DNA from: Cetorhinus maximus
Taxonomy: Eukaryota
DNA: 64,000 nt
Assembly (NCBI RefSeq): GCF_964194155.1
Contig: NC_135880.1
Location: 118,606,001-118,670,000, forward strand
Reading direction: 5' to 3'
Shown here: positions 6,126 to 37,195 of the stretch, piece after piece
How positions within the stretch are numbered: position 1 is the stretch's first letter
How the letters are laid out: every line of letters begins with the position of its first letter
Position numbers and translations under genes: made by a program
The notes under the pieces: model-generated
Database searches by the model: none
What the model was told of the DNA's origin: nothing
What the model saw: only the letters and a program-made list of their open reading frames with translations

Positions 6126-6127
6126 TT

Positions 6128-12025: not shown

Positions 12026-12304
12026 AGAAAAGGCATTTACAAATAGTCACTAAAAATGACGAATTGAAGAAAATTAAAGCGCCTGGAGGGATTATTAATT
12101 TCACAATTAAGAATCATCTAGCTTTGTACCTTTGCCAAAAGGCTTACTTGACAATGAAGTATGGTGCTCAAGTAACAACAGCTATTTCAAAGTTATACAC
12201 TGTATGAGCGTTTCTGAGATATCGTAAGGCTTTTTATAAATACAGTGGGAATATTATTCACCTTCAATGAGGTGTTAACTTGGCAGTGCAGATCACCCAT
12301 CCAT

Positions 12305-12497
12305 TATAGAATCTTGATCCAACATCCAGCAAGATCATGGCTGATCTTCTACTTCAACTCCACCATCCTGCACTATCCTTACAACCCTTAATTCTTTAGT
12401 ACCCAAAAATCTATCGACCTCAATCTTGAATCAGCAACTGAGCATCCATGGCTGTCTGGGATAGGGAACTCCAAAGGTTCACAACCCTTTGAGTGAA
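12305..12497 (-). mobile_element. CR1 3' fragment
   Basis: AAGATCATGGCTGATCT...CAATCTTGAA...GGGATAGGGAACTCCAAAGGTTCACAACCCT, a reverse CR1 3' end similar to 28113-29325. Confidence 0.6.
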
Positions 12498-14857: not shown

Positions 14858-14976
14858 TGTTAGAACGAGGCTGAATTTTCCATCCGCACAATGGTTGTGG
14901 CCGTCAAATTTTGCAATGTCTCTCGGTGTCAACATAAAATCCCTTACCTCAATGAAACAGGTCAGAAAATTGGTGG

Positions 14977-15203
14977 TAAAAGCAAAATACTGTGGATGCT
15001 GGAAATCTGAAATAGAAACAGAAAATGCTGGAAAAACTCAGCAGGTCTGACAGCATCTGTGGAGAGAGAAAAAGAGTTAGCATTTTGAGTCCGTATGACT
15101 TCTTCAGAGAAGAGTCATACTGACTCGAAACATTAACTCTGTTTCTCTCTCCACAGATGCTGCCAGACCTGCGAGTTTTTGAGCGTTTTCTGTTTTTATT
15201 TCG
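14977..15203. mobile_element. Inverted-repeat Penelope-like terminal element (degenerate)
   Basis: Imperfect palindrome (CAGCAGGTCTGACAGCATCTGTGGAGAGAGAAA versus TTTCTCTCTCCACAGATGCTGCCAGACCTGC). Flanking direct repeats GAAAATTGGTGG and GAAAATTGATGG. Confidence 0.75.
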
Positions 15204-15584
15204 GAAAATTGATGGGGTGGGATCTCCACCCAATCCTTGTCTAAGCTGCTGAACTTGGTCTGTTTCACTGTGACAGGGTATTTTGCATATGTACAGTGAG
15301 CACTGTGCCTTTTGATGGCAGTACAGCAATGCACCCTGCCCCTCATGTGAGGGGCAGTTGGGGTGGCGGGGAGAATGGGAAGAAGGAAACTGTAAGACTG
15401 TATTGGCACAGATCATCATGTATGGTGCTGGTGTGTGAAGAGGAATACTTTCCTCTAAAATTCAAAATGTTTAAGTTTTCTCCTTTAATTGAGGCAAATG
15501 TATCAGTGTAATCAATTACTGTGTGCTCTATGCCACATCTTTAAATTTGAATCCCCTTTCCCACATTTCCTTCGCCCAAAGGAT

Positions 15585-15805
15585 TGTGAGTCTTTGCAAT
15601 TCTCCAGCTCAGAGTTGTGGATGCTCAATTTATGAATATATTAAAGGCTGAGATTGACTGATACTTGGTCCCTCAGTGAACCAAGGAATGTGGGGAGCAG
15701 GCAGAAAATGGAGTTGAGGCCAAAAATTGGCCATAATCGTATTGAATGGTGGAGCATCGAGAGGGTGTAAGGTCTACTCCTGCTCCTATTTCCTATATTA
15801 TTCTG
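15585..15805 (+). mobile_element. CR1 3' end fragment
   Basis: AAGGCTGAGATTGA...GAATGGTGGAGCA...CTACTCCTGCTCCTATTTC, a typical CR1 terminus. Confidence 0.7.
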
Positions 15806-16049
15806 TATCGCTAACAGTAATGGTGTGTGCCAGCAATGCAGTCAAACTTATTGTGTCTAACATCCCTAAGATGCGATTACAAGAAATACATCGTATGATG
15901 TCATTCTGCCCACATTTTCATGGGTGGCTCAAATGCTCTAAGTCACTTCTATGGAGAAATGCTGTTGAATTGCAGGAAGCTCACCAATATTCCTCCTCTG
16001 ACCAACTAGGTTATGCCAATTTACAGACATAACTTATCAGGAAAAATTG

Positions 16050-17170
16050 GCAATCATACTGGAGGGAGGTATATTGTGATGCTCCCCAGGGGTCTGTATT
16101 AGGACCACTGCTCTTTTTTGATATACGTACTAATGACCTGGACTTGGGCAGAGTTTCAAAGTCTGCGGATGACATGCAGTAAACAGTGGGAAACGTAATA
16201 ATAGACTGGTGAAATGGGCAGTCACATGGCAGATGTAATTTAATGCAGCGATGCAATTTAGTGCATTTTAGTAATCAGAAAGGGGAGAGGCAATATAAAC
16301 TGAAGGTTACAATTTTAAAGGTAGCAGGTAAGCTGGGAGAGCTGTTAAAAAGTGTATGGGATCCTTGGATTGTAAACAGAGGCAAAGGGCAGGATTTGCC
16401 CCTCGTCAGGCGGGCGGGCCTGGGAACAGCTCTGACCGCGATAACGCGCACTGAGCGCTTCAACGCTGCCGGGGTCGGGGGGGGGAGGAGGGCGATCGCT
16501 GAGGTCTGCACATGCACGGGGGAGCATGCACCGAAAGCTCCCTGATGGCACAGAGCTGCCTCATCAAGCTGAATAATTTTAAAATGAAAAGTCAACATTT
16601 TACAAATGATATAAGCATGTCCCCACATGTGACTCAGTCACACAAAGAGGGACACGTAAAAATTATTTTTTTTTAGTTACCGTTGGAAGCCTCATCCCGC
16701 CTGTGGACGAGGTTTCATAAAAAATGCAAAGGCCGCATGGCCTATTCGCCCGCCCAGCAACTGAACGGTTGAGCGGGCAGTGGAAAATATAAATTAATTA
16801 CTTGTTTGAGGGCCTTAATAGGCCTCTGAATTGTCGGTGGATGCGCTGCCGCCTCTTGGTACGCCTGCCAACCGAAAGATCATGAGAGTGTGCGATGACA
16901 TTGGGACGCTCGCCCGACATCATCGTGCACTATTTCACTCCCGTTCAGGTTGGGCGCGTGCCCGCCCGCGGGACAAAAAACTCTGCCCATAGAGCACAAA
17001 AGCAAGGCAGCAGGTTAAACCTATATAAGTTGCTAGTTAGGTTTCAGCTGGAGTATTGTGTTCAAGTCTGGGCACCACACTTTAGCGATAATGTCAGGGC
17101 AATGGAGTTTTACTAGAATGGTACTAGGGATGCGGAACATCACTTACGTGGAGAGACTAGAGAAGCTGAG
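16050..17170 (+). mobile_element. Decayed CR1 RT fragment split by a MITE
   Basis: PQGSVLGPLLF..TNDLD and ADD before the MITE, then LYKLLVRFQLEYCVQVWAPHF after it. Confidence 0.75.
16387..16988. mobile_element. Harbinger-type MITE inserted in CR1
   Basis: Ends GGGCAGGATTT and AAACTCTGCCC. Removing it restores the CR1 sequence AGAGGC-ATA-GAGCACAAAAGC. Flanks are AAA and ATA. Confidence 0.8.
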
Positions 17171-17189
17171 GTAGTCCAAAGTCCAAATT

Positions 17190-18482
17190 GTTCATGTAAA
17201 TTGTGAACAGCAGTGGCCCCAGCACTGATCCTTGTGGAGCAGCATTTCCCACCTTCTGCCACTCTGAATAACTAACCTTCAGCTTTCTGTCTTGAAGCTA
17301 TCTAGCAATCCACGCAACCACTTGGCCTCTGACTCCAGGGGCAGCATTTTATGGGGAGAGGGGGTTGCTGTTGGTGAATGGCTCACCCAGAGAAGGTAAG
17401 TTGGCTGGAAGCCAACTCGCTCTGTGCAAGCAACTGCGGGAGTCCTAAATTAGCTCACAGTGGGAATTCCACTCCTCACTGTGGAGGAAGTCCCGCCCTC
17501 GGGAGCTGCCAACCAATCTGATTGGCTGGCAGCTCCAGCTGTCCCAGCAGCACCAAGTGCTCAGGAGTGGGTGTCACTGGGCCTACAACCAGTCCCAAGA
17601 GGAAGGCCCACTGGATCCTGGAGTGAGGTAAATCTGGGGTATTGAGCAGGGAGGGTTTGGCCAGCTTAGGGAAGGGGGCAGGAGTGGTGGGTTTTAGAGA
17701 TCAGGCAGGTAGGAAAGGGGGGTTAACTATCTTGCGGGGCTGCCACTGATGCACAAAGGGTACCTCCAAAAGATAGTACCCCACACTTCCTCCCACCCTT
17801 TTAAAAACTTATTTTAAAAAATGGCCCACCTGCTCCCACACATCTGCCCACGCCAACCATATTATGGCAAGCTCATTTTTAACAAGCTCATCTAACCCAT
17901 GGTTATTTATTTACATATGGTGGGCAGCTGCTGATTTGGCACCCACCCACCTACCGTGTTATGGGGGTAAGCTCAGGAGAGGGTGGGAAGGGGATGGGTG
18001 TGCACCTGCACTATTTTAGGTGCCCACCTCCCAACAAAAATACGCCTGGTGGGGGCACATAAAATCCAACCCAAATTTTCTGATCTTATTCATTAGTCTA
18101 TTATTGGGCACCTCATCGAAGGCCTTTTGAAAATCCAGATAAATTACATCTACTGCATTACCATTGTCTACTCTCTCTGTTACCTTCTCAAAAAATTCAA
18201 TTATCCCTTTTGACTTTGTTTAGTTTGTTCAATACATCCCCTTTTTTATTTTAAATACACTTATCTCATTATTCATCTCAGCGTTCAATGTCATGTCTAT
18301 CTATCTATCTCCCTCGTGAATACCGAAGCAAAATAATTATTTGAATATTTCTGCCATCTCTCTATCATTACCTGTCTATCCCTTAATAGCCAAATTCCCA
18401 ACATAATCTTTCTTTTTTTATTAGGGTGGCTGTAAAACATTTTACTATTTTGTTTTTCATTTTTTGATAATTTAGTTTCATA
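17190..18482 (-). mobile_element. Old CR1 fragment (reverse), interrupted by a MITE and by the Harbinger at 18483; probably resumes near 25015-25110
   Basis: Reverse strand gives PQGSVLGPLL and DVIYLDFQKAFDEVP (rc of GGCACCTCATCGAAGGCCTTTTGAAAATCCAGATAAATTACATC). Confidence 0.7.
17339..18072. mobile_element. Harbinger-type MITE inserted in CR1
   Basis: Ends GGGCAGCATTTTATG and CATAAAATCCAACCC. CR1 sequence is on both sides. Confidence 0.7.
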
Positions 18483-20699
18483 GGATGGAATCTTCTACTC
18501 CTGCCAGCAGTGAGAATCATGGCAGGTGGGGGTACTTAATTTGGCATGAATGAAAAAAATCAGTTTCCCACCTGGGGAAAAATAGTCTGGAATTTTTTTC
18601 TCCCGATTTTCCAAGTGGGTAAAAGGCAGGTCGAGTTTCCTGCTAAGCAATGTCAGGAGCCCCATTTTCATTCATTAGCATATCATGAATGCTCATTAAA
18701 AGGCCAACTCACTGGAATCACATTCCCCTTCCAAATGAAGTGCCCCACCAGCAGATAATTAGAATGTTTTGTTTTACGACTGTATGTAAGTGGCGCGCAC
18801 CTGGCAAGCTTCACCCACGACTTGGAGGTCAGTAGATGCTGCTTTTGCCTTCCTTTTACACCGTCACTGAAATATATTGGATGCCTGTAGCACAAGCTGT
18901 TCCAAGGCTGGGCATGGGAGGCATGATTAGAAGGGATGGGTGAGACAGATGCAGGACTGGGGTCGGGGCGGTGCAAGGACCAGAGTGAAAGACTGTCCAT
19001 AAGTAAAAGTTGAAAGACTGTCCAGGGAAGGTTGAGCGACTGTCCTAGGGCTGAGGCCACTCTGTTTGGGGAAGGTTGAGAAGCTGTCCTGGGGTCAGGC
19101 CATGCTGTCTGGGACATATTGAGGAGACTGTCTTGGGGCTTATGAGCCATGTTAGAGGGCTCCGAATGGCACACATGTCTTGTGGAATGGGAGGAGTGGG
19201 AGGGGGTGGGGGCGGCAGGAAGTGGGCGGGGAGGGGCTCTCTGGACAATGAAGTTCGTGGAAAGAATGGTGTGTAGGATGTGGTCAATGAACTAAGGCAT
19301 TTAAATGGGGGGGGGTCATAGTATTGGGAGACAGGGGGCACAGTAGCATTCAGGGGAGGGATCTGGATTCTGCAGATCAGTAACTGAAAAATCATGGGGG
19401 GGTGGTTTCAAAAAGTAAGGGTGCATGTGGCCTTGAGAAGGGGAAGGGTCAGGTCGATAAAGGGCATGGGGACATAAACATTGAAGGGATCAGGGGGAGA
19501 ACAGGAATATCAACATGGATAATGATGGGGTCAAGGGTAATGGGAGAGGCTGGATAATTACAGGAGGGATGGGAATTAGGAGGTGGCGACTATAGAGGAG
19601 GATGGGAGAAACATGATGGGTGATGGGGGAGGTTGGAAGCTGGTTGTACTCATGAATCTAATGAGCACCACCTTCACCTTCAGTGACCAATGATGCAGTT
19701 GGAAAAACAAGCTTGAAGAAACGATATGGAAGGAGTCTTAAGGCATGTGGGAGGAGTTCAGCACAACTATTTTGGACTGATTGAAGGAGCATCCTATTAA
19801 TTACCTGCTCAAGCCATGGAGAACAGGGCTCAGCTGAGTGCTGGATTCAAGGGTCTAATGTATAATGAACACGTTTTGCACCTTCACTAATGGTGCACAT
19901 TCAGGCAAGAATCCATTAAGTCTTGGTGCTGCAGTAAATTAATGATATTAATGGCCCTATGTTCCTGGAAGAGGCATTTAAAAAGGGAAGGAGGATCAAC
20001 AAATCAAGGGCCCCAGCTGCTGGGCAGAAGCTGCATGCACACTACAAGCCTCAATATTCCTATCCCAGAAGGAAAAAACAGTTCGGACCAGTATTCTTAT
20101 TTCCCAGTTTTTACTGTTTTTTCCTTCTGGGATTGTACTAGTCATGGCTTACAAGGCACCATGCTTACAGTCATGACATAAGTACAAGGCTAGAGTACTG
20201 ATAGATCGTTTCTAGGCTACTGGAGGCAAGCTGACAATAGCCTGACTGAGGATTATAGCACGTGGTTGTATTGACACTAATCAAACCCTCATAGAGAATG
20301 CGCAGTTTTGTCTGAGGGGAATGCTCTGCCACCTGTGGACCTCCAGGATGTTATTCACCTGCAAGGGGTGGCCTGGGGATGCCATATCTAGATTGAGGGC
20401 AGGTCAAGGGATTGACACTGGATTCCTGGCTTGGAGATGGAGGGAGACCATTCAAGGGGAATTATTAATGATGGCTCAATTCTATTCATTCACAGATACA
20501 AGGAGTGGAGAACCCAGGCTGCAGGCAATGCTGCCTTGGTGACAGCTGTGAATCAAATGAGGAGAAGAAAGGCCGGTCACCGATTGTCACAACTCTGGGA
20601 AGACCATCGGCCTGAGGAGCAAGAGGCAGTGGGGCCCCAGGACATTCCAGATGCTGTCGAGGAGGGGAAAAATCCACAAAGACGTGTGGTGTGACTATA

Positions 20700-21730
20700 A
20701 GTATGTATAAAACACAGCTCATATATAGAAATAAGCGAAAGACAATGCAGCAGGAGCCTTCACTTGTCTAGGGGTGTGGTAGCTCACATTAATCACCTTC
20801 TCCGAGAGGAATTTGGGGGGAAGGACTTGGGGGGAATCCCATGCTGGTTGCTTTGAAGGTGACCGCTACACTGAACATTTTTGCTAGCAGGTCCTTCCAG
20901 GGCTGCACTGGGGACCTTTGTGGAGTATCACAATCAGTGACGCATAAATACATAAGGGAGATTACAGACGGCCTTTTCAATAAAGCTCACCATTACGTAC
21001 AGTTCCGCATGGATGATGCAAGTCAGGCTGCCAGAGCTGTGATCTCAGGTTTCCCGCAAGTGCAGGGTGCCATTGACTGCACACATGTGGCCTTGAGAGC
21101 TGCCTAGCAGCAGCCATTGAGATTTATAAATAGAAAAATATTTCATTCTCTGATCGTCCACATAATTAGTGATCACAGAAAGCAGATCCTGCATGTGTGT
21201 GCTAGGTATCCAGGGAGCAGTCACGACTCTTACATCTTGATTCGCACTCAGGTGCCACAGGTCATTGAGGGACCTGAATGCTTGCAGGATTGGCTCCTCA
21301 GGGACAAAGGGTACCTCCAGAAGACACCTGTTGACACCTGTTCGCCATCCATATAGTGCAGCTGAGGACAGATACAGTGAAGCACATTTTGCCACAAGGT
21401 CCTTAATAGAGTAAACGATTGAGCTCCTGAAGATGTGTTTCCGATGTTTAGACTAATCATGTGGGACTCCCCAATACTCACCAGACAGAGTGTCCCACAT
21501 CATCGTTGTTTGCTGTGCCCTGCACACCCATGCATTGCAAAGGTGAGATGTGTTGCCTGTGGGAGACATTGAGGATCTAGACGTCTCCCCGGAAAAGGAG
21601 GATGTTGAAGGGGATGGCTCTGAAGAGGGTGAGGATTCAGATGAGTCACATGAGGATGCCATTGCATGGGCATGAATGGCATTCATGCCTGAGACAACCT
21701 CATTGTTACAAAATTCCAGCAGGAATGAGG
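20700..21730 (+). pseudogene. Harbinger DDE transposase (HARBI1-like), disrupted
   Basis: LKVTATLNIFASRSFQ...GFPQVQGAIDCTHV; FINRKIFHSL; ARYPGSSHDSYIL; DKGY; CCALH followed by an acidic tail. Stops and frameshifts present. Confidence 0.92.
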
Positions 21731-23037
21731 TGATGACAAATTTTCACAATCAATCTTTAATGCTTAGCGCTTGGACGTCTCAAGAGGGAGCAGCATCCAG
21801 AGAGCTGCACTTGTCCCATCACCAGCTCTCACCAATGCATAATGCTGAGGCATCATCTTGCTACTGACCCCCAATCGCCCTTCACACATCAGGATGCGCT
21901 GACATTTAACTCTACATCATGCAGCAAAGCTGCGGGGTTTGTTTCCATCGTCCTCACAGAGTGCTTCACCAGGACAATGGTTTGATGAGTACCAAACACT
22001 CAAGACTCTGCAATTGGAAGCCTGACAAGTCTCTGTCCTGGATGACCATTGCATTAGGGTGAAACTTTGCCCAGTCATTACTGACACAACAGCCAATGAC
22101 AACATCTTCTTTGCAGAGTCTCTGCTGAGGCTTTAGGAGATTTGCAAATTCATCGCTTTCAGAGCATGACAGTCCTCGACAAGGTCCAGCTCACAAAGGC
22201 CATTCCTTTCTATATACCCCAAGTCAATGAGAGCACTGTCATGCAATGAATTTCAGATTGAGTTGTGTGCTGTTCCTTTACACAAGAAGCACGTAAAGTC
22301 CTGGTAAGTAGGCGTCCAGATCCAATGAAAGGTAGTCACAGGTAAGGAGATGGCTTCATCAAGATGAGTATGCACCGCTGACATTACACACTCAAACTCC
22401 TCTTGCAGACATTAGTAAGTTTCCTGACTGAACATTACTTCCCTAGTTCAGCGCCATGCATGGGGAGAGTGGGAACTCAACCTTGAACATGGACGCTACA
22501 TCTTCCTGCAGAGGGGCATGGAAGCCTATAGACTCCAAAGTTTGACACTTTTTTCATGAACTGGCTCTCATAAAGTTAACACCATTGCAAACCACACATT
22601 GGAGAAACAAAAATCATGTTAGTCTCGACTACTACTTGTCTTCCCTAAACAATAGACAGCAGCAGGACCATCACTTACCTTGATGAGCGCCTCTCCAGAG
22701 CTCAAAACATGTCTGCCTGAGATTGAAGGATGACAGGTATATTGGCCAGGCATCAGTGTCACATATGATGTGCACTTCTTGATGTCGCAGATGTGGAAAT
22801 AAAGGCAACTCACAGTGGTGAGATTGCGTGAGAATTTCTGCAACTGAAGATCCAGATGGGAGTTCTTTGGGGACCTACATTTTGGACCCTTGAATGACCA
22901 TGGGACATTGAAGAAAATTAAATATCAAATTAATCCATGAGACTTGGAGGAGGGTTAATGCATTACAGAAGTAAAAAGTCAAATCAATGAGTGAGCACCC
23001 ATGGCACCATTGCGCATTCAAAACTTCAAAATTTTTC

Positions 23038-24745
23038 TTACCCTACTGCTCCGCCTAGGTGCAGCCCCAACATCCACAGCAGAGGAGGAGGCAGCCGCTG
23101 ACTGCTATGCCTTGTTGTTGTCTGAGATGATTTAGGCAGGTGTCCTCTGCTGGCCCGAAGCCTTGAGGGCCCTAGCCTGCTAAGGGACTCCTGCTCAGGT
23201 GCCCTCCTCGGCCTGACCTTGGAGTTGATGCAGTCACTGGCAGAGGGGAGTTGGAGCAGCAGGGCATCTTTGGAGTGTCCTGGGTGGATACCCCTGGGGT
23301 GCCTGGCTGGCAATCCTTCTCCCTTTGGGTGCCTGATGGCCCCTTCCTGAATCCTTGAGAAGGGCATCTGGAGGGAGGTTGGGGTGCCCAATCGTCCTCT
23401 CGCCTAGCCACTGCTGGAATGCACTCATGGCTAGAGCTATGGTGTGCAGGTCCGAGCGCAAATCTGGCAGAAGCTGCTGGATCTGGGTCTCCAAGGCAGC
23501 TGCCACCCTTCCCACGGAGACTTCGATGCATTTGCATGCCGGAGCCATGACATCAGACAGAACGTGGACGGACACCCCCATCCTTCGGTCCAGTCTGCTG
23601 ATGGCCTCTGATAACTCTGCCTACTGTTCCATTGCCTGTCTCTACATCTCCAACATGTCTCATAGGGCTGGTTCCAGAGGCTCATCATCAGACTCAGTTT
23701 CAGCAGGAGCATGGTCTCCAGGAGTCCTCCAAGCGTCAGAGACCTCAGCTGTCACTGCCTCCACCAGCTGTAGACCCGTGTCTGTGAGGTGATCACCAGA
23801 TATTGAACCTGAACCTACTTTAGAACTAGGTCCCATCGAGGTGCGTCTAACTGTGCTGGTAGAGGGTGCAGGTGAACAACAGCCTCCCTCCGAGGATAAT
23901 TCTGCTTCTTCCTCAGAAGTGTCTGCAGGCTGAGGCTGGGGCTGAGTCTTCTTTTGGAGGAAGTCCTCCCCCTTTTCTTACTGGTACCTGGAGTAGAGAG
24001 AAGAGAGAATTAGTGATTGAATAAGTAGACTCATACATTAATGATTACTCATTGTCTGCATGTTGTCAAAGTATACTGGATGCATCCTCACTAGCTTGTT
24101 GGGGCGTCTGACATTGCCTTCCACGCAGGAACGATCCCTCTCCTCACCAGCAAGCTCTGAAGCCTGATCCTCAAACACTGGCAGGGTTCAGAACTCCAGG
24201 GCTCCCCCACCCATCGTGGCTTACTTTCTTTCGTTATGTGTAATCTTGTCCTGCATAAAGACAGATAGGTTAACTGTGAGCACAATGGATGAAAGAGCAG
24301 TTCAGAAGCATGCATGCCTGTTACCTCTGAGCAGCCCTCCTTGTAAGGGATTCTGACACTGTTTGTGCAAGAACTTACATGAGATTGTGAACTTAAAGTG
24401 GCTGACAGACATTCGGTGCTGATGTCCCATCTGCTGGTTATGTGTGACATCCCTGTTGGCTCTAACCCTTAGACTGCTTGATGCTTTATGAGAGGGAGAG
24501 TTTGGAGTGAGTAGAAGTTTCACTTATCCTGGTGGAGCTGAGCAGATCATTCATCTGTTTTCAGCAGTGCAAGGTGGTCCTTCTTTGGGTTCCACAGGTG
24601 CTAACTTCCCCAGTGACCTCCTCCCAGGCTGGCATGGTCAGGTGGGAGGACACCCTGCTCCCATCCCTCCTGCCTTTCTTGGGTGGCCTGGAAGAGAATC
24701 CAGAGGGAGGCTTCGCTGAACCATGGTGCTTCGCTTGGGTGCCAT
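23038..24745 (-). pseudogene. Harbinger Myb/SANT (MADF/trihelix-like) DNA-binding gene, three exons, disrupted
   Basis: APWFSEASL...AWEEVTGEVS...RT..HC*KQMNDL. Exon 2 begins after tatgcag near 24252 and exon 3 after ctccag near 23988, with a coiled-coil-like MGRVAAALETQ segment. Confidence 0.8.
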
Positions 24746-25710
24746 AGTTTTCCTCTTCACTGCAACATCTGGTCTGCAGTGAGTGAATGTCTGTCTGGGT
24801 GCTGTTTAAATATGGCGGCAGGACCTTCGACCCCATGAGGTTACAGCAGGGCGGGCGACTTCCTGCCCACCCCACCATGAGATTCGCTGAGCTTCTCGCT
24901 GATGCATAATTAATCTGATGAAAAGTGGAAGATCACACGTGTTCAGCTGTCTCACCGCCCAGCAGGAATTACAACGGCCACTGGACTTAGCCTCCAGAAT
25001 GGAAAATTCCACCCATTGTTCCTCCTTGCCTTCTTAATTGATTTTTAAAACTCATTTTCTATAGTCTTTGTCTTCCGTCTTATCATGCACTACTTTTCTA
25101 CTTATAGGACAATGTGGCACAGAATAGAAGGGAGCAGAAATGCATCGGAGGATCCCAGTTTTGGGACCTTGAATCCCTTCAAAGAAGCCAAACATAATCA
25201 CGAGGATCCTTCGAGGCTGTCCAAGGTAGCCTGCAAGTTCTGGTCATGACTGTGGAGTCTCTCACCAGATGAATTTGTACATTTGTGCAGGAGGTTTAAT
25301 GGCATCATAATCTATTGTGTGACAGGTGGTAACTAAACAGGAATCTGCAGGAAAAACCAATGGCAAGGGTCCTAGGCAAATTGGGAGTATCCCTCCTGAA
25401 GGCTTATACAACAGATATTAAGGTCTTGGGTTAAAATGTCGAATGTATGCTCTTGCATGCTTTAGTGAGCTGGTTGAATGGAAAGAGTCTTGATGCAGAG
25501 TTTAATTTCATAATTGCCCACAGTTCTGCTCCCATCTATATCACTGAATAAGCTGAGGGAATGCCCAATTCATCCTGTGTCGTGCTCTCGTAGACAAGAT
25601 GGTTCAGTTGAAGAGTGGCTTAGTCAGTTAAAAGTTATTCCACCATTAAAGTGGGTACAGTAATGTGGTGCTGTCAATAGAGTTGCTGAAGCAGTCTATA
25701 AAAGATACAA

Positions 25711-25946
25711 ACAAAAAGCTACTGCGGATGCTGGAAATCCAAAACAAAAACAGAATTACCTGGAAAAACTCAGCAGGTCTGGCAGCATCGGTGGAGAAGA
25801 AAAGAGTTGACGTTTCGAGTCCAACATGACCCTTCAACAGAACAGTTCTGTTGAAGGGTCATGTTGGACTCGAAACGTCAACTCTTTTCTTCTCCACCGA
25901 TGCTGCCAGACCTGCTGAGTTTTTCCAGGTAATTCTGTTTTTGTTT
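25711..25946. mobile_element. Palindromic Penelope-like terminal element with 14-bp TSD
   Basis: Perfect inverted repeat 25741-25843 / 25845-25947, with TATAAAAGATACAA directly repeated at 25697-25710 and 25947-25960. Confidence 0.88.
25844..25883 (+). ncRNA. Minimal type I hammerhead ribozyme-like motif (mirror copy on the - strand at 25805-25843)
   Basis: agtt-CTGTTGA-a-gggtc-atgttg-gactc-GAAA-cg-TC-aact: stem I agtt/aact, stem II gggtc/gactc, palindromic ACGT stem III, GUC site. The core has U in place of the conserved A6. Confidence 0.6.
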
Positions 25947-26056
25947 TATAAAAGATACAATTGAATGAATTACTACAATCATTAATAGAATTACAAAAAC
26001 ACAAGCAACCTGGGTAATCTAACTTTTCCCAAGATTGTTGCAAATTAGAGGTTAGA

Positions 26057-26320
26057 TAGTATCAGTTTGGCTCAGTTGTAGTGCTCTTGCCTCTAAGGCA
26101 GATGGTTGTAGGTTCAAGTCTCAGCTCAGCTTGGCGGCAAAATCTACATGACACATCTGCTGAAAAAGTGCTGTATTATTTCAATTGTGATATTTTGTGA
26201 GAGATGTTGACTGGGGACCTGACTGTTTTTTCAGGTGGATTTAAAAGATTCCATGATACTATTGAAGGAGAGGAATTTTCCCAGTGTTCTGCCAACGATT
26301 ATCCCTCAGCTATCACCTCC
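26057..26320 (+). mobile_element. tRNA-derived Deu-domain-type SINE, decayed
   Basis: A-box-like TGGCTCAGTTG and B-box-like GGTTCAAGTC, followed by CAGGTGGATTTAAAAGATTCCATG...TTATCCCTCA, which I recall as the DeuSINE central domain. Confidence 0.6.
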
Positions 26321-26449
26321 AAAATTTGATTTTTAAAAAAATTTTCTGTCCTTTAGTTCAGGTGATTCATTAAAATTTAAATGTTACAGTCAGAATGCTT
26401 TGCTGTTTTCATCGTGAACTGTCATCTTGGCATAAAGATGGAAATCACA

Positions 26450-27260
26450 AATTTGTATTCATGATCCCCTTGTTCCATCAGCCTCATTTCTTGAACTCTA
26501 ATGACTGCAAGCAATGGCATTATATTATTCTTCCTTCAACATACACATGCATGATGGTAACTGCATGAAAATTTCTTTGCGGTGGCTGCATCTAGATTGA
26601 TACTTGACAACGCCTGCTGACTTTGTACAATTACAGTGTTTAACGTGACTCGATTATAATATGCAGTTCTCAGAAACTCTATGGTAGACATTGAAAAGGG
26701 AAGATTGGCATGATGTTGAGAAAAGTCAAGACATTTACCCATCCCCTCCAAGACAGCAAAGAGATCTGGCACTTTAAACAGTGTGTTGTATAGAATAGGA
26801 CAAGTTGGAATTTTGTCATCAACACTGCTAGTTTCTCGAAACAAAGTCTTTCAGCTACACTGGATTACTCGAAGAAAGACCTATTCATGGGGATGTAGCA
26901 AATGCAAAACCACTTAATCCTTAGGCAATGATCATGGGAGCAGGGAATGAGGAATAGCAGTTAACATGTGAGCAGCATTCCACCAGGTTTCAGGTTTGTC
27001 AGCATTTACAGATACTAATGAAGAAGGCGTGGAAGGAATAAAAGTAACTAATGATTTTGTTATCTGGGAATAACTAAGCACTATTCTCCCAAAGAAGAAA
27101 CTGCACATGGAAAAATGGCCATTTCTCTGCTGAATTAAGATGAGACTACTTGGCTGTTCCCTTTCCCTTTTGAAAGTATAGGGGGAATTAATATCCAGCT
27201 GTATCAACAGCAGTAGTCAAGTACCTTGCCTGTCCTCACATTTATCTGCTATTGCAATGA
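26450..27260 (+). pseudogene. Highly decayed hAT-family transposase relic
   Basis: Motifs in hAT order across frames: TLKREDWHDVEK (about 26690), PLNP* (LDPR-like, about 26910), PFPF*K...YPAVSTAVVKYLACP (dimerisation domain, about 27160-27237). Confidence 0.45.
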
Positions 27261-28112
27261 TCGTAGAACAACAAAGAGTTACATCACTCATGGTTGCACC
27301 TTTAAACCTTTCTCAACCACTCATTATAAGACTGACTCTATTTTGGATACTAAGTTGATGGATGTCTCTGGCCTCGGCAATGGTATTTATAATGTGAGAA
27401 CAGTCGTAGCACTAGACTGGCATCCGTTTTGGCTGTACATAAAAAGTGATTCAGCAGCAAAGTCATTTGGCACAATATTTGGAGATCATTATCCAAAAAA
27501 CTATGGACAATTGGCACTGCTTTGCAACTTTAATTGTTAGTCCCCACTACCAGCCTTCAACTCAAGCCTTTGCTGCCTCCACCATGACTGGTCTATCTGT
27601 GTGAATTGAACTGCTGTTTTTCCATGAATACATTAACACAATTGTTCAATGTGTCTCCCCTAGTGGGTTTAGTTTTGAAAAAATATTTTAGCAGCATAAG
27701 AAAATGCAACTATGTCCAAAAGCTTCAAATTGCATTTTTAAATGGTCATGCCCATAGATAAATAGGGTATAATTAGTTCTTTTAATATTTACTTTTTGAT
27801 TTCCATTGTATAAATCCAAATGTTTTGCAATTGAAATTCAACTGTTTTTAAGTTGACTGCTTTCAACAATTTTTTCTCCCACCTTTCTGTAGTACTCAAA
27901 TGCTATGGGGTTAAATGGGCTAGCCCCTAAAAAACAGGCTTGGGGATCCCAGTGTGATTAACCTGTGCCCATTCATTACATCCCCGGCAAGCAGCATGTT
28001 AAAATTGTGCTGCCTACTTTTTTTAAATGATTGTTGTGTGCAGTCAGTACCATCTGCGCTATTGATTGGCTGCACGCATCAGAAGGAGGCTCAATATTGT
28101 AGGTGGCTAATG

Positions 28113-29325
28113 CTAAGAACATAAGAAGTAGGAGCAGGAGTAGTCCATTTTCCCCCTCCAGCTTTCTGCATCATTCAGGTCAATAAGATCACTGCAATCT
28201 GATTTTGGCTTTAGCTCCACTTTGGCTTTAGCTACCACCCGATAACCCTTGACTCCCTTGTGTTATGACGTGGCAGCTGATGTGTGCTAGGAGGACCAAA
28301 TCTACAAGGGAAACTTGGTCAAACTATCAAACGGTTTTACAATTTGTATTTATTATGAGATGCGTTCACTGAATTCAGAAGTATTAAGTCCACTAAGACC
28401 TTTAGGACTTTTAAAAATTAAATTAAAATATTTATTAATAAAATATAAAAGATTTCAAGCACATACATAAGACTACAATTATTTACTACTATAATAACTC
28501 CTAAAATTCCTAATTAATTTGACCCCCAGTCACAGTCCCTTTAAGGCAACGGTCTAAAATAGATTTTAGATTTAAAACAGAACCAGTAAGTTAACACAAT
28601 ACCCACTTGACAGTGGAATTCCAAATGGCTTTCCCCAACTTCAGTTTCATTATATAGCAGACTGGAGGCTTCATTCAGGCTATTTCACACATTCCTGTTA
28701 GATCTTACATGGCCTTCTGACACACAGCATTTCATTCTCCTTTATATATGTATTTCTCTCTTTAATATGTAAATTCTATTGTTCCATATGTCTTTGGAAC
28801 TGTATCTTTCTCGTAATATAAAAACTTGCATGTTGCCAATATTATCAGTAACCTTTGGGAAAAATAAACACATTCCTTAGTCTTGCTGATCTGGCTAGTT
28901 GTAAACAGACTAAAATTCCTTTGAAATCCAAAACTCTTCATTTATCTAAAAATGCAAATTCCTTTCACACCTTAAATGCTAAGCCAGCATCCATGTTTAC
29001 TCATTAGCATGTCAAGCACCTAGCTTCTTTTGATGATTTCAAACTTGCCGTCTACTTGACTCTAAATGTAATTAAATAACACACAGACCCAACTATACTT
29101 ACCCCCATAAACCTACTTCAAAATAAACCAGAAAAATACTATGAAAATTATTATACTTTCATCACACTTGTCAATCAAAAATCTGTTTAACTCAGCCTTG
29201 ATTATATTCAAAGACCCAGCTTTCACTGGGGTAGAGGATTCCAAAGATTAACAACTCTCAGAGAAGAAATTCTTCCTCATTTCCTTCTTAAATGGGAGAT
29301 CCCTTATTCTGAAACTGTGTTCCTG
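28113..29325 (-). mobile_element. CR1 3' fragment, host of the solo LTR
   Basis: TAAGAACATAAGAAGTAGGAGCAGGAGTAG (reverse CR1 tail). The sequence GACTCCCTTG|TCAATCAAAAATCTG is continuous once the LTR is removed. Confidence 0.8.
28261..29166 (-). mobile_element. Solo LTR (906 bp) with 4-bp TSD CTTG
   Basis: TGTTATGA...TCATCACA termini (imperfect inverted repeat), CTTG on both sides, no coding content. Orientation is tentative, from TTTATT motifs. Confidence 0.85.
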
Positions 29326-29689
29326 TGCTACATTATAGGCTGCTTGCACCTTTTAAAGGGAGGTGTATTGCAAGATGTAAAGGGAGTCTTTTGAACAGTC
29401 AGTCTAAACTCTTATACTTTATGGAATGGTTGAACACGTGAGGGTGTGAACAGAAAGGTTTTCTGTCAAGGCACTAAAAGTCCTGGTGCAAGGCATGGAG
29501 AGAAAGAGAGACATCCTGTACCAGTATGAGGTTGGGGTAGGGGTGGGATGCTGCAGGGGGCCTCAATACAAATGGTCAGGAAGCAGTGGGGAGAAGTAGT
29601 AGAGGTCAATGTCGTAAGTATAGGTCGAAGAATATAGATATAGTGCAAGGAAAAGGTTCAACGATCTGAAACAAGTTCTCAAGGTGAGT

Positions 29690-30402
29690 GACTTTATCTT
29701 CAAATGAATCATGTCATATCTGACCCAGTGATGAGCTAATGACCACATATTTGTGCCACCACTAAGACCACCTATTCCATCTCTGTAACAACACCTGACT
29801 TTGCCTGTGCTCAGCTCATCTGCTGCTGAAACTTTCATTTGTGCCTTTGCCATTTCTTGAAATGCCTATTCCAATACATTCTACCCTCCATTTGAGGTCA
29901 TTCAAAACCCTGTAGCCTATGTCTTTATTCACATCAAGTCCTGTTCATTCATAACTCCTTTGTTCGCTGACTTACACTGGCTCCTGGTTAAGCAATATTT
30001 TGATTTTAGATTTTTCACCGTTGCTTTCAAATCCCTCCAAGGCCTCCCCCTCCCTATCTCTGTAATCTTCTCCAGCCCCACAACTCTCCAAGATATCTGC
30101 ACTCATCTAATTCTGGCTTCTTGAGCAACCCCGATGCTAATCATTCCACCATTGCTGGTCTCTCCTTCAGCTGCCTCAGCCCTAAGCTCTGGAATTCCCT
30201 CCCTAAACCCCTCTGCCTCTTCACCTCACATTCCTCCTTTAAGACAATCCTTAAATCCTACACCTTTGGCCAAGCTTTTGACCAGCAGCCCCAATACTGC
30301 CTTATGTGGCTCAGTGTCAATTTTTGCTTTATGCCGCTCCTGTGAAGTGCCTTGGGGTATTTTGTTGTGTTAATGGTACTCCTTAAATACAAACTATTGT
30401 GG
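29690..30402 (+). mobile_element. L2-type LINE 3' fragment
   Basis: LFADLHWLLVKQ, FSCLSPKLWNSLP, FKTILK, and a tail similar to 10560-10781. Confidence 0.8.
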
Positions 30403-30766
30403 TTCTTGATATATATACCTAACCTCACGCACTGCTCAATTCTCTACACTCCCATTATCCACCTTCGAACAATCTCAATCAATCAGCACTGAACACTGAA
30501 ATTCATTTGCTTATCTCACTCTTGCACTGTTAGCAATGTTGCAAGCCTCACGCTCAACTCACAGGAAGGATGTACTGGCAGCTACTCCAGCATGACAGCC
30601 ACATCACCCAACACAACATTGCACAACATTCATTGATACTTCTACCTTTCTTAGAGGAGAGGTTGGGGCATAAACAGAACAGCAGGAAAGAACTGGTGCA
30701 GGTCAAACACAGCTGCATGTTTTAAACCCTCTGGAAGAAAAAAGTGTTGGCCATTATCACTGATGC

Positions 30767-31087
30767 TGTAGCACAGTGATAATCTCACTGGGTTAGTAAT
30801 CCAGAGGCCCAGGCTAATGCTTTGGGGACTTGGGTTCAAATGGCAGCTGGTGGAATTTACATTCAATGAATGAATCTGAAATATAAAGCTAGTTTCAGTA
30901 ACTGTGACTATCACCGATTGTGGCAAAAACCCATTTGGTTCACTAATGTCCTTTAGGAAAGGAAATCTACTGCCCTTACCTGGCCTGGTCTACATGTGAC
31001 CTCAGACCCACAGCAATGTGGTTGACTCTTAACTGCCCTCTAAAATGGCCTAGCAAGCCACTCAGTTCAAGGGCATGAAAGAATAAA
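30767..31087 (+). mobile_element. tRNA-derived SINE with a family-A LINE-like tail
   Basis: GGGTTCAAAT B-box-like head, body GGTTCACTAATGTCCTTTAGG..ATGTGGTTGACTC shared with the copies at 38695 and 42348, end CAAGGGCA..GAATAAA. Confidence 0.8.
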
Positions 31088-32047
31088 GGAAACAAAACTC
31101 ATTTCAGGGATCAACGATGAGGACGTCTGCATACCTAATCATCTTTCTTCCTTCATACTTCTCCTTCATCCCACAATTTCTTCTGTGTGAAAAGCTACAG
31201 GCGAAGCAAGCATGCATTCCTTACTTTCTCTTCTCCCTGTGCTATAACCAACCCTTGTCCTCTTTCCATTTCCAGTCAGATGAGGAAAGGAAAGAAGACT
31301 GTGAGTATGAAGAGATTGTCACTCAATCTTACACTCGGAGCCACCAGCTCAAAGAACTGCACATATTTCAGAGAGTAGGGAAGAGCAGAGCGGAGGATGA
31401 GTTTGCACACTATTACTGTTGCAGATGAGGACTTTGATGAGTGAAGCTACAGGAGAATGCTGATGTGAATACATAAACAAATGCTTGCTGCATTGGAAAG
31501 TCTGTCAGAAAGCTTGCACTTAATCTCAAGGAGCAGGAGCCAAATTCCAACTTGGCACAGAGCTTGTTCCAACATGGAACAGGTGGTCTTCTCCATCAGC
31601 ACAATAGGGGAACCAACTATCATGCAGGGTCTGATGTCTAACGTTAGCTTGCCTTGCAGTGTAACACCTTCCGCTGTATAAACAGCTTCCAAAGGTCTTA
31701 GTGCCATAGTAGAAGCTCACACAGCTCCCATATTCGATCTACTGTTCATAAAGGGCTTCCACGGCATCACAGCAGACCAGCCATCTGTTCTCTAACAGGT
31801 TAGTAGGATTGCTGTGATGCTGCCTCAGGATAGTGGCAGTGGCTACATGGAATACAAATCTGCTGTCCTCTCTCAGGAGGGTAACATTCCACCTCCCAAC
31901 CCTGCTACTCTGCCAGTGCCCTTGCAGTTACCTGTCAGCCAGCTAGACCAGGCTGTTGCAGTCCCGGCTGAGATAGTGCAGTCTGAAGCAAAGCCTTCTA
32001 TGCCCAGAGCTACTCAAGGTCACCCTACACAACCGTGTGCAGTCTCC

Positions 32048-32817
32048 TGACAGGGAGGAGAGATAAACTGAAACTCCTAATTCCCTTCCCTTCTGTCCAT
32101 AATCAGTGTGGTTTATTTTTTAAAAGGTAAATGTGTGGTTCTAAAGCCCCATTAGAATGTGGTCATTTCTAAAAGTACCAGCAGCAGACCTTCATGATTT
32201 AAACAAAAAGGATTATTTATTCACACACTCACCCTGAAAGATCTAAACGCTAGGTCAGTCACACACCACACAATCAAGAAAGGATAAAATTAAAGAAGAT
32301 AGTGCACTCCTACAAGTATAAACCAAAAGAATAGCTAACAGTTCACATGCCTTTGTGAGTCCAATGAAGAAAGAAGCTTTTTCCCACTCTTGAATTATAG
32401 TTCTGATAAGGTCAGGGAGCTGAGGTCAGATGTCAGGATCACTGCAGGATTTCTTCAATGAGAAGAATGTTCAACAGGTCAGATACTTGTGGCTGTTTTA
32501 TCAGGAGATCCAATTTTTTTGTGTGTGAACTCGGAGCTTTGGAATCAGGCTGGGAAGCTTTTTTTAAAAAACTCTTAAGCCTCTCGCTTCTTAAAAAGCA
32601 AAGGTGGTACAGCCTTTCTCTGCAGCCGTTGATTTTGTTGGTGTTATCCTGAAGACTGCCCAGGTCTCTTCTGAGTTTTGGGATAAAAGGATTTCAGTAT
32701 CAGAGAACCAGTTTCAGTCAAATGGTCAATGGCCATTGATATACAGAAGAAGGGAGATAATGGTCTTTCACACTTAACTTGTGGATAATTGGTCTCATCA
32801 GCTTTCCTTTTCAACAT
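32048..32817 (-). mobile_element. Possible solo LTR
   Basis: TG...CA-bounded segment with a TTTATT(CA)n block that cuts off the Myb relic. No convincing TSD. Confidence 0.3.
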
Positions 32818-33242
32818 CATAAAGCTGGAGTCACAGGCCCAGGGATTGGCGGACCTGACGTTTAAAAATGTCCACCCATGGATCAGATATTAGTTTGGTG
32901 GGAGCAGGCTAAAAAAACTAGTGGGAGCGGGCTACCCTGAACGACTGCGCAGTCTGCCAGGTGTGGAGGCGGACTGGACATAAGGCATGCCTCTGTGCTC
33001 CGGCACTGTATTTATATAAATAAAATAATAATAATAAAACAAAAAACATCTATCCAGCCCTCAACCCTCTCTCCCCTCACCCCCCACACACTCAGTATGC
33101 CCCATCCATGCCAAGCTATGACAACTCATGCCCCCCATTGCACCTCACACCCCTTTGCAAACTTAGTGTCAACCTATGCCAACCCTTGCCCCCCCACCCA
33201 CTACCCTTTGCTCTTAACCTTTCCTTGCCAACTCACCTAGTA

Positions 33243-33530
33243 CCTTGGACAGTTTCTTGACAGCTTTGAAACTTTATGAGCACCTTTGACAAGCTTGACA
33301 CTGGATCCTGGACATCCTGGACGGGTTTGACAGCTTGGGCAGGGTTTGACACTGCCTTGGCCGCTTTGATAGGGTTTGGACAATTCCTGGATAGCTTTGA
33401 CAGGGTCTGACACTTCCTGGACAGCTTTTACAGATTTAACACTTAGTGGACAGCTTGACAGCTCTTTAACAATTCCTTAACAGCTGGGCAGTCCCTTGAG
33501 AGTTGGACAGTTCCTTACAGCTTGATAGTT
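33243..33530 (+). repeat. Degenerate ~10-bp tandem array with core TTGACAG/TGGACAG
   Basis: Repeated ttgacagc, ttgacac, tggacag, ttaacag variants at roughly 9-12 bp spacing. Confidence 0.75.
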
Positions 33531-33638
33531 CCAATAAGTTTGTGCGTAAAAAGTACATAAACATGTTCAGTTTTAATAATCCCAAAGGATGCTTTACCTC
33601 TCCCAAAGGTGTCTCTGGATCCTTTTCAAAGGAGTATC

Positions 33639-34641
33639 TTTTTTTTATTCACTCATGGGATGCGGGTGTCGCTAACTAGGCCAGCATTTATTACCCATCC
33701 CTAATTGCTCTTGAGAAGGTGGTGGTGAGCCGCCCTCTTGAACTGCTGCAGTCCATGTGGTTTGGTACACCCACAATGCTGTTGGAGAAGGAGATCCAAG
33801 ATTTTGATCCAGCGACAGTGAAGGAATGGCAATATATTTCCAAGTCAGGAGGAGAATTTCTAGGTGGTGGCGTTCCCATGTGTCTGCTGATCTCTCCTTC
33901 TAGATGGTAGTGGTCGTGGATTTGGAAGGTGCTGTCAAAGGAGCCTTGGTGAATTTCTGCAGTGCATCTTGTAGATGGTACATACTGCTGCCACTGTCCG
34001 TTAGTGGTAAAGGGAGTGAATGTTTCTGGATGGGGTGCCAATCAAACGGGCTGCTTTGTCCCAAATGGTGTTAAGCTTCTTGATTGTTGCTAGAGCTACA
34101 CTCATCCAGGCAAGTGGGTAGTATTCCATCACACTCCTGACTTGTGCCTTGTAGGTGGAGGACAGGCTTTGGGGAATCAGGAGGTGAGTTCCTTGATGCA
34201 GGATTCCTAGCCTCTGGTCTGCTCTTGTAACCATAGTATTTATATGGCTAGTCCAGTTCAGTTTCTGGTTAGTGGTAACCCCCCAATGATGTTGATAGTG
34301 TGGGATAAGTGATGGTAATGTCACTGAATGTCAAGAGGCAATGGTTAGATTCTCTCTTGTGTGGCACGAATGTTACTTGCCACTTATAAGCCCAAGCCTG
34401 GATATTGTCCAGGACTTGCTGCATTTGGACATGCACTGCTTCAGTATCTGAGGAATCACAAATGGTGCTGAATATTGTGCAATCATCAGCGAACATCTGA
34501 CCTTATGATGGAAGGAAGGTCTTTGATGAAGCAGCTGGAAATGGTTGGGCCTAGGAGACTACCCTGAGGAACTCCTGCAGTGATGTCCTGGTACTGAGAT
34601 GATTGACTTCCAACAACCACAACCATTTTCCTTTGTGCTAG
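33639..34641 (-). mobile_element. 5'-truncated CR1-group LINE (family A)
   Basis: MFADDCTIFSTI, QKLNWTSHIN, and a reverse tail with poly-T at 33639. Confidence 0.92.
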
Positions 34642-35250
34642 CTATCTAAATGCATCCATCAAGTTCAGACCTCCTCTTACCTGTTCTAATCTTAACACTC
34701 CAGATTCCACACTCCTGTTCTTCCAAAATCCCACTTCAGTGGAGGCAGCTGGTGATTTAATTGGCCAGCTGCCTTCACGAATTGCACATGCGCCTACCTT
34801 GGCCCAGTCCTGCTCCAGTGAAGATGGGAAATACCAGGCTCGGGAGTGTGACCTAGAATTTATCGCCATTTCCAGGAGAGGCTCCCTGTTATGGTGAAAA
34901 TCCAAGCCGTAGAATCTAGGAGTCCACTGACTGTGTTTTGGAGTAAGCTTCAAACAATAGCAAGCATGACTTCCACAAAGGAGTGTTGTCTAGGCATGTC
35001 CATTCAAGGCAGAGACCCCTACCCAGTATGATTCAATTCGGGACATTCTGGAAGCTTGATAGTCTGAGTTGAAGTTACTCAGGTCACCTGACTCCCTTGG
35101 CAGCCATCTTAACAGTTCATTAGTGTCTATTTTTAAATAAATAGAGGTAGTTCCTGAAGCTTCCACATGAGCAGAGTCCGAGTTTAAAGTTATGAATATG
35201 ACATGCCTTTTACTGTGCATGACACTCCTCAATTAAAGATCAGAAACACA

Positions 35251-37195
35251 GGCCAGGATTTTCTGTTTGGGGGTGGGGGAGGCGGAGCAGGAGTGGGCGC
35301 AGCCGGGTGTGGACCCGATTACCACCCATGATCGGGTCCGCTCTGCCATTTTACGCGAGCAGGCCAATTAAAGCCCGCCCAGCATATTTGCTGACTCCCG
35401 TGGATAGCGGGAGCGGGGGGGGGCTGCGGCGGGTGTGCACAGACCGCTGGGTCCAATGGCGACCCAGCAGTCTGTTGAAAGAAGGCCTGGCAGCCTTTTG
35501 TAGGCTGCTCACAATGGCCAGTTCCAGGGCGCACCAGAGTGGTTCGGGTGGGCAGGCCAGGCTGGAAGGAATGGTAGAGGAGCAGGGCAGGCTGCAGGGT
35601 AGGCCAGTGGGGGGCTAATGCGTCCCTTGTTTTTCTGATGAATGCCTTGCTGCCCTCCTCAAGGAGGTGGCAGCATGGCGAGAGGTGTTGGTCCCCCAGG
35701 ATGGGAGGAGGAGGCCCTCCACATGACCAAAGGTGCCTGGGAGGAGGTGGCGGAGGTGGTGAGCTCCCGTGATGTGGTGCAGCGCACCTGGATCCAGTGC
35801 CGCAAACGCTTCAATGATTTGTTGCGCTATTGCAGGGTGAGTACCAATGTTGGCATTGGGCATATAACCCAGCAGGTAGCCTTTCTCTCTGAGGACCCCC
35901 CCCCCACCTCCAAGTCTTACTGTCATGACTGCATTGAATCATTTATGGCATTTTTCCTTTGCTGGGTGGCCAAGCAGATAGTGCCCATACTGAAGTCAGC
36001 CTGAGTGGTTCATGAGGAGATGAGTTCTCCCCTGCACCATGTGTTGCTCTTAGTCGCGCATGGCTAGTCTGGGAGCAAACCGGAGGAGGCGCATACTCAG
36101 AACTCCAGCACATGTCCTATTCAGGGCGGTGAGATGGTGGCAGGGGAGCCTCAAGGTGTCATGGCAAAGAACCATCTGCTGCCCACTACGCTGAACATGA
36201 TTGCGCCTCCTTGCTATGGGAAGAAATACCGTGTGGTTCCTAATGTGATGTACGCAGCATGTGTCCAAGGGGGCATTGGGGGGGTGGGGAGCAGGCGTAA
36301 CATCTTTGTCTGAGTGATCGGCAACAGTGGGGAGAGGAGGCACTGGAGGCCTGATATGCCCCACTCTGGTTGGGGTGTGGCGTGCGAGTGCAGAGTCCAT
36401 GTGCAATTTTCCCTAATGAATGGTCTTCTCTCTTTTTCAGGAGAAGAATGCTCATAACGCGTCCAAGCGTGCGAGGACTGGAGGTGGCCAGGTACAGCTC
36501 TCCATATTAACCCAGTTTGAGCAGGAGGCCCTTGAGCTGGAGAGGCGCTATGCACCCAGGTCTGCTGGTGTCGGTGAGGCTGGGGTGGCACGGTCAGGTA
36601 TTTGAGGCCAACAGTGAGATCCGCAATGTCCCCCCAACATCCATAGCACTGATGATTGTTTAATTGGTTATTGTTGCAACATTGCTGGTTCTGGAAGGTT
36701 GAGCGCTTAATGAGCCAGGGGGACAGGGATGAAGTTTGTCAGTGTGTGCATGCTAACTGATCCATTGTCCTTGTTCTTCCTTTCAGCATCATCAGAGCAC
36801 GGTCGGGAGGAGGAGCAGCAGAAGCCCCCTCCCACACCTGAGGGCCCTGAAGTCTCACCAGCATCACACCATTTCTGCGAGGCAGGCGCCAGAATTTGAA
36901 CATCGGCTAATGTCCCGGAACACAGTGGTGAGGGCACTTCACAGTGGCTGGAGGAGCTGGCAGAGACAGAGAGTGCCCATGGTGCCAGCAGTCAGAGAAC
37001 TGCAGGGGACCAGGCAAATGCTCAGTCGGTGCCTGATGACGTGCCTCTGGAGTCGTCCGCGATGCAGTAAGTGCAGGAAACGCGGCCGGGTGTGCGGGAG
37101 AATCTGGTGGAGATACACAAAGCTATTCTTGGCTTGGTGTCCGTGGTGGAGGAGTCTACGCGGACGATCGCCGAAGCAATGAGCCACATGTCCAG
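35251..37195 (+). mobile_element. Truncated Harbinger element carrying a Myb/SANT gene relic (exons about 35514-35836, 36441-36597, 36787 to beyond 37190)
   Basis: TIR-like GGCCAGGATTTTC; PCFSDECL...AWEEVAEVVSSRDVVQRTWIQCRKRFNDLLR; GT-AG introns; paralogous to the element at 60316. Confidence 0.88.

Follow-up and report, generated by a model that had tools for sequence, protein, structure and literature searches.

The window examined here is a 64,000-nt stretch of the Cetorhinus maximus genome (NC_135880.1, positions 118,606,001 to 118,670,000), which opens within a ~53-kb intron of an ADAMTS19-like gene carried on the minus strand. The host gene was assigned from exon matches, the exon at 47293-47460 (-) sharing 96-98% identity with cartilaginous-fish ADAMTS19-like proteins, in agreement with the ADAMTS host proposed by an earlier, sequence-only reading of this DNA. 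In the middle of this intron, at 25697..25960, lies a perfect palindrome. Its two 103-nt arms are 100% complementary, without a mismatch, around a 1-nt axis, and an exact 14-nt direct repeat bounds the whole unit (Table 1); both the palindrome and the target-site duplication (TSD) had been described before, and both stand. The ~30 bp of unpaired leader described alongside them is present as 30 unpaired nucleotides, but this "leader" is the 3' tail of a Penelope-like element (PLE) that reads on the minus strand. The tailed arm has the same orientation as the ADAMTS19-like gene, and the two arms end at element positions 102-103 (tail-less) and 133 (tailed). Taken by itself, the locus is a young transposon stub of an ordinary kind, set mid-way in a long intron.

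Other mobile elements can be found elsewhere in the window. An older head-to-head stub of a related PLE family (14977-15205, ~82% identity to the arm) has its tail on the left arm and arms that overlap within the hammerhead, and a decayed single pLTR (55235-55349, 73% identity) contains an A6 core. The minus-strand frames at 20793-21743 and 63130-63967 resemble decayed pieces of a Harbinger-type transposase, and the plus-strand frames at 59031-60269 are similar to the gag-like/SCAN region, with a zinc knuckle, of an LTR element.

Table 1. Features of the palindromic unit and its host intron in the 64,000-nt window.
Feature	Positions	Strand	Basis or remark
Host intron, ADAMTS19-like gene	1..47292	-	Bounded by an exon at 47293-47460; the following one lies ~6 kb ahead of the window (in L195)
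TSD, tail-end copy	25697..25710		Inner 8 bases match the element continuation at 7/8 (microhomology)
PLE 3' tail, 30 nt, on one arm only	25711..25740	-	Tail type as described in PMC3846280, PMC8557442 and PMC11167929
Tail-bearing pLTR arm, beginning at the first G of the hammerhead (element position 1)	25741..25843	-	97.9% identity to the L175 5' pLTR over 141 nt
Minimal hammerhead motif, U6 core, predicted C17 at 25809, stem I of 3 bp	25805..25843	-	Sequence
Axis base, single A/T spacer (commonest junction type counted, 386 loci)	25844..25844		Junction counts
Minimal hammerhead motif, U6 core, predicted C17 at 25879	25844..25883	+	Sequence, folding
Tail-less pLTR arm, inverted, reaching element position 102-103; its final T belongs to the TSD as well	25845..25947	+	Sequence
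TSD, tail-less-end copy	25947..25960		Exact repeat

Because the left repeat agrees at its inner end with the element continuation, the exact position of the left junction is ambiguous through microhomology. A contig from run X21 over 25250-25734, which reads from the flank into the element across this junction, showed 0 differences from the assembly (the run may be the assembly's own sample). In runs X19 and X23, checked for an empty site in relatives, the unique flank beside the insertion had no coverage, a result without weight either way. Assembly fold-back was ruled out by this contig together with the repeats of related copies, since an exact direct repeat of at least 9 nt, particular to the unit, flanks 102 of the 114 units that combine a tailed with a tail-less arm; the earlier argument that the TSD speaks against fold-back is upheld. 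A MITE or DNA-transposon reading was rejected as well, the ends being asymmetric and matching a retroelement terminus. The only Rfam matches at the window were hairpin-type miRNA models, all below their gathering scores, with no hammerhead model among them; a miRNA precursor was ruled out, as such scores reflect any perfect hairpin.

Each arm contains a minimal type I hammerhead motif with a palindromic stem III, as had been recognized from the sequence, with U6 on both strands. The plus strand reads, in order, stem I (4 bp), a CUGUUGA core, one extra A, a 5-bp stem II with one G-U pair, GAAA, the palindromic ACGU and C17; the minus strand holds the mirror motif, and cleavage is predicted after 25879 (+) and 25809 (-). 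Relative to the CUGANGA / GAAA / UH core, A6 is replaced by U, and every other core position agrees. The hammerhead pattern has 25,170 exact matches genome-wide and 0 in a reversed control, so the motif is not due to chance; for the loop variant seen in the window, the count of exact matches is 613. A6 is kept in 1,103 of the 25,170 matches (4.4%) and C6 is found in 6,674, the other 17,393 having U or G, with no G among the first 100 listed. Units with A6 look older than the U6 subfamily of the window (3.2 vs 1.3 arm differences, n = 6 and 23). The Rfam hammerhead check that had been proposed gave no match at E up to 10, either in the window or in two single-arm copies; the canonical-A6 copy among these also fails, and the test therefore has little power. 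Across 26 hand-picked variants, 99.6% of cells in stems I and II are paired, with four pairs varying on one side only and one cell on both sides, and 12 of 500 shuffles reach this score. The changes seen (G-U to G-C or A-U, U-A to U-G, and one double change) would fit a kept fold, and as covariation they are weak.

Folding gave -200.7 kcal/mol for the hairpin and -133.2 kcal/mol with the hammerhead stems forced, a gap of 67 kcal/mol; the hairpin, which the earlier reading had competing with the ribozyme fold, outcompetes it. The window hammerhead is predicted to be silent, locked in the hairpin, because each strand holds a single motif and that motif's complete antisense, because minimal motifs depend on a dimer partner, and because the base at position 6 departs from the canonical one. 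With the two motifs on opposite strands, no dimer can form in cis. Minimal PLE hammerheads reportedly fail to cleave as monomers and cleave little as dimers (PMC4209133), and A6C strongly cuts activity in Mg2+ (PMC3088659, PMC7151607); no published data on the effect of A6U were found. A dsRNA hairpin might plausibly form in the ADAMTS19-like pre-mRNA, where the earlier reading took it for a possible ADAR/Dicer substrate.

The unit recurs across the 3.99-Gb genome, as the sequence-only reading had suggested should be checked. A DNA search with the unit returned 1,251 candidates, and all 40 that were scored are full units at 94-100% identity, so that at least 40 near-identical full copies exist, each sampled one with its own TSD. 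A 32-mer downstream of the hammerhead has 36,344 matches genome-wide. The Penelope link and the GIY-YIG/RT partner that had been anticipated were both found in the same genome. The full-length copy L175, which belongs to the same subfamily as the window unit, has the layout pLTR-tail-ORF-3'UTR-pLTR (3,308 nt per unit). Beyond its 5' end, which matches the window arm (Table 1), the same tail continues into a 5' UTR and the start of an ORF, with an ATG ~35 nt past the tail and frameshifts in the ORF. In L061, an inverted tail-less end is followed by RT and GIY-YIG pieces and a tailed end, with a 14-bp TSD. RVT_1 and GIY-YIG matches were obtained in both L061 and L176, RVT_1 below its curated cut-off in both and GIY-YIG above it in L061 only.

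The order in the partner ORF is DKG, RT, a C-x4-C-x2-C linker and GIY-YIG with two internal cysteines, and all sampled ORFs contain stops, frameshifts or truncations. In P0001, the C-x4-C-x2-C linker ahead of GIY-YIG was read by eye, as was the Neptune mark of a CX2-5CxxC linker between RT and EN with a CCHH motif. A linker of this type before a C-terminal GIY-YIG is described as a mark of Neptune/Nematis (PMC8557442), and the Neptune assignment was made by such motifs, a Nematis-type element being formally possible.

Head-to-head spacers form a continuous series, from overlap up to 4,877 nt, in which the longer members carry RT and GIY-YIG coding sequence. The features looked for in an EN+ PLE insertion are all present, namely an RT/GIY-YIG ORF in related copies, direct or inverted pLTRs with 5' truncation, a tail at one end, and a TSD. 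We conclude with some confidence that the window unit arose when a Neptune-type PLE inserted head to head and without a body. A single event likely produced it, with reverse transcription on element RNA primed from the two ends of a staggered cut. The ORF-start region downstream of the tail is absent, so the copy is likely a dead end. The earlier view of a distinct non-coding, strand-symmetric retroelement is not supported, since the unit is made directional by its one-arm tail and sits at the zero-body end of the head-to-head size series.

We examined 129 head-to-head units, 114 of which combine one tailed and one tail-less arm within the length limits, and 98 of which entered the arm comparison; the samples are best-scoring or first-listed hits from contigs C1-C3 and others, and are non-random. 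Over 90 positions, arms differ at 2.3 positions within a unit and at 7.4 between units. A common subfamily signature links the two arms in 50 of 68 units without a body and in 25 of 30 with one (13% and 20% after shuffling), and 6 of the 12 signatures are found in both classes. Discordant signatures occur in 23 of the 98 units, and many or most of these look like CpG decay or single substitutions. That the arms usually share their marks, across many subfamilies, suggests that the palindromes likely form anew at each insertion. The earlier option that U6 predates the palindrome is upheld. Perfect arms were observed in 12 of the 98 units, including that of the window; in the least biased sample of the window subfamily (mean 1.3 differences), 3 of the 14 other units have them. 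Perfect arms being ordinary in this subfamily, the window copy is simply young, as had been claimed.

The earlier reading corresponds to a non-autonomous family whose palindromes are transcribed whole and reinserted whole. The many near-identical full units with their own TSDs would be expected of such a family, as would the one signature that is mostly body-less (14 vs 1), although that sample was chosen for palindromes. A master palindrome is not supported, because it would need every change to be mirrored in both arms many times over, and 10 different matched signatures were observed in which each change is mirrored. Descent from a master with a fixed junction is likewise at odds with an axis that varies and with many mirrored signatures held in common with body-bearing units, whose ends and TSD are also the same. 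The unit furthermore lacks the ORF-start region that the anole protein needs (PMC11167929), and a hairpin of -200 kcal/mol would presumably be a poor template. We regard this explanation as very improbable, and favour new formation of the palindrome at each insertion. In four units (L008, L021, L029 and L109), the arms carry loop variants of different subfamilies, which could mean that a single event used two RNA templates or that gene conversion followed.

The direct repeat is exactly 14 nt long in 48 of 102 units (30 of 70 with a spacer of at most 11 nt and 18 of 32 with a longer one), and 14 bp is the TSD mode with or without a body. In the 48 units, arm 3' ends fall into two clusters, at ~96-104 and 129-144. 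Between the TSD end and the element continuation, microhomology averages 1.78 nt in the 36 of these units with a clean tail junction (null 0.36) and 1.02 nt in the 43 with a clean tail-less junction (null 0.40), both above all 2,000 resamplings, with conditioning on repeats of exactly 14 nt possibly inflating these values. A C precedes the left repeat in 29 of 48 units and a G follows the right repeat in 21 of 48, a weak mirror symmetry at bases that are biased by the maximal-repeat rule. No microsatellite targeting was seen among the 14-mers. Among 15 clearly asymmetric units, the tailed arm is longer in 11 and the tail-less arm in 4; since either arm can be the longer, the arms are probably primed separately. 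Arm lengths are nevertheless alike beyond chance, with 10 of 32 units within ~25% (null 2.7, p = 0.0003) after centres were re-measured for 17 units, with 7 units with a spacer <12 nt left out, L144 added and L185 kept.

These junctions point to the following course of insertion. An endonuclease, probably dimeric, would cut both strands 14 nt apart, and each 3' overhang would pair, over one to a few bases, with either of two internal U-rich start sites ~35 nt apart, giving one tailed and one tail-less arm. Both cDNAs would run toward the RNA 5' end, stopping in the window unit at position 0/1; this is probably the 5' end of a pLTR-started transcript, and 100-135 nt would hence be copied. Joining of the two cDNA ends would leave the 1-nt axis. 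We draw this scheme from junction anatomy and from an enzyme of the Poseidon clade, not the Neptune clade. The protein of Poseidon_Ac, from Anolis carolinensis, is described as cleaving and extending both strands from two internal starts that bound the tail, as a predicted dimer, and as not needing hammerhead cleavage (PMC11167929). Poseidon_Ac differs in its clade and in having its ATG inside the hammerhead, whereas the shark ATG follows the tail. Points against two-ended priming include the discordant signatures reported above, and the description of the initiation site in PMC11167929 as not homologous to the cut DNA, whereas shark junctions show short primer-template microhomology.

Palindromes of this kind could also arise by self-priming, as put forward in PMC3846280, if a single primed cDNA, bent back on itself through the self-complementary motif where the hammerhead begins, served as its own template for the second arm. 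The usual subfamily match between arms and their similar lengths would both follow, and the 307 junctions of the 4-nt overlap type fit a 3-bp snap-back. However, fold-back is impossible with a 1-nt loop, copying a tailed cDNA cannot give the units in which the tail-less arm is longer, primer-type microhomology is found at both junctions, and some units have arms of different subfamilies. Many of the 4-30 nt spacers moreover hold short arm-derived inserts (read by eye), a signature of end joining. Self-priming is therefore considered unlikely relative to the priming of both arms from the two ends of the cut.

In total, ~1,700 junctions of the types counted are present in the genome. The counts are 386 for the single A/T type, 603 for spacers of 0-3 nt, 779 for spacers of 4-30 nt across all 27 lengths (~29 per length) and 307 for the 4-nt overlap type. 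The positions of arm 5' ends were tested with an anchor on a motif downstream of the hammerhead, which avoids selection for an intact hammerhead, and 93 distinct arms were taken from the 100 matches listed, after a duplicate filter that dropped some mirror arms. The ends of 18 of these 93 arms lie at -5..+4 (1.8 per nt), that is, at the first base of the hammerhead, compared with 13 in -50..-6 (~0.3 per nt; p = 8e-7) and 25 in 5..60 (p = 2e-5), with 27 past -250. At the cleavage site (position 35-36) there was no excess of 5' ends, with 3 of 93 arms in 35-44, and hammerhead-cleaved RNA was ruled out as the main template. The sharp upstream edge and the downstream shoulder fit run-off at the RNA 5' end, an explanation of the peak to which we lean slightly. 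The motif at -1..+6 is self-complementary and could drive fold-back, giving a peak without an RNA end, and the overlap type is nearly as common as the 1-nt type.

A pyrimidine tract, a branch-point-like motif and YAG lie just upstream of position 1 in L061, L141, L175 and others, and are kept across subfamilies. The 5' peak could accordingly be a splice acceptor and not a transcription start, with an intron ending at stem I as in D. virilis Penelope, whose intron end was mapped to the 5' end of helix I (PMC4209133). The tract with YAG at -1..+1 occurs in all sampled subfamilies, several of which have a branch-point-like CTAAC, in line with such an acceptor. No conserved upstream exon sequence is seen at the junctions, however, and none of the 15 joints listed (of 37) in RNA-like contigs ends there, which is a weak test. 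The same pyrimidine-tract and YAG bases are also compatible with the initiator consensus. We doubt that splicing explains the peak, and still lean to run-off at a transcript 5' end.

The combination of inverted pLTR, palindromic junction, one-sided tail of 30-40 nt and TSD is already published as a PLE layout (PMC3846280, PMC8557442). Pen2a_Av of Adineta vaga (PMC3846280) and the general scheme in the legend to Fig. 2 of PMC8557442 share with the window unit the head-to-head inverted pLTR, the palindromic junction, the tail, the TSD around the whole unit and 5' truncation. In contrast to these, the window unit is without any body, the TSD mode is 14 bp and not the 8-10 bp of the rotifer examples, and hundreds of shark copies share one junction point. 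The genome-wide junction counts and the hammerhead-independent test of the 5' peak are additions of the present analysis. No published account of shark PLE palindromes or of PLE twin priming was found, and supplements, Repbase or Dfam may already describe the family.

The minimal hammerheads of metazoan PLEs (PMC4209133) resemble those of the shark in the extra nucleotide before stem II, G10.1-C11.1, the palindromic 15.2-16.2, the short stem I and the location in the pLTR, and opposite-strand pairs 100-700 bp apart are already described there. They differ from the shark motifs, where 96% of genomic matches carry U or C at position 6 and stem II has 5 bp. Non-LTR retrozymes (PMC7229834; bioRxiv 10.64898/2026.07.22.740005) are similarly non-coding, hammerhead-bearing and PLE-related, but they are described as head-to-tail tandems with two hammerheads on the same strand, whereas the window unit is head-to-head with one motif per strand; an identity as a non-LTR retrozyme was rejected on this basis.

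As a class, body-less stubs are clean records of PLE integration, a process called still undefined in PMC8557442. They supply a 14-nt stagger, a pair of start sites, short stretches of primer microhomology and a candidate for the start of the RNA. A combined reading, which we offer as tentative and rather less likely than not, would take the palindromes to be run-off products that locate the 5' end of the RNA at the base where the hammerhead begins, with a dimeric enzyme priming both ends of the 14-nt stagger. A6 would have been replaced in the most successful shark subfamilies, with U and C both amplified and the stems kept, and an attenuated or protein-dependent hammerhead might be favoured because uncleaved RNA is the template. 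The family supplies natural A6, U6 and C6 hammerhead variants in one scaffold, which raises the question of whether PLE ribozymes need cutting at all.

Several individual copies showed further arrangements. A body-less palindrome lies inside the DKG-coding region of an older Penelope copy (L023:1500-1740), and a direct duplication of 2.57 kb in L182 (99.6% identity, 7.3 kb apart) contains one pLTR of the window subfamily in each copy. In L189:3224-3381, the hammerhead part occurs as three tandem 52-nt copies beside an inverted arm, forming a small head-to-tail array. At the axis of L005, L006, L008, L018, L028 and L029, the opening bases of the U6 motif on the tailed arm recur in additional 5-nt repeats, which account for the spacers of 6 and 11 nt. 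These repeats resemble telomerase-like slippage at the end of a template, and it is U6 itself that creates the permissive repeat.
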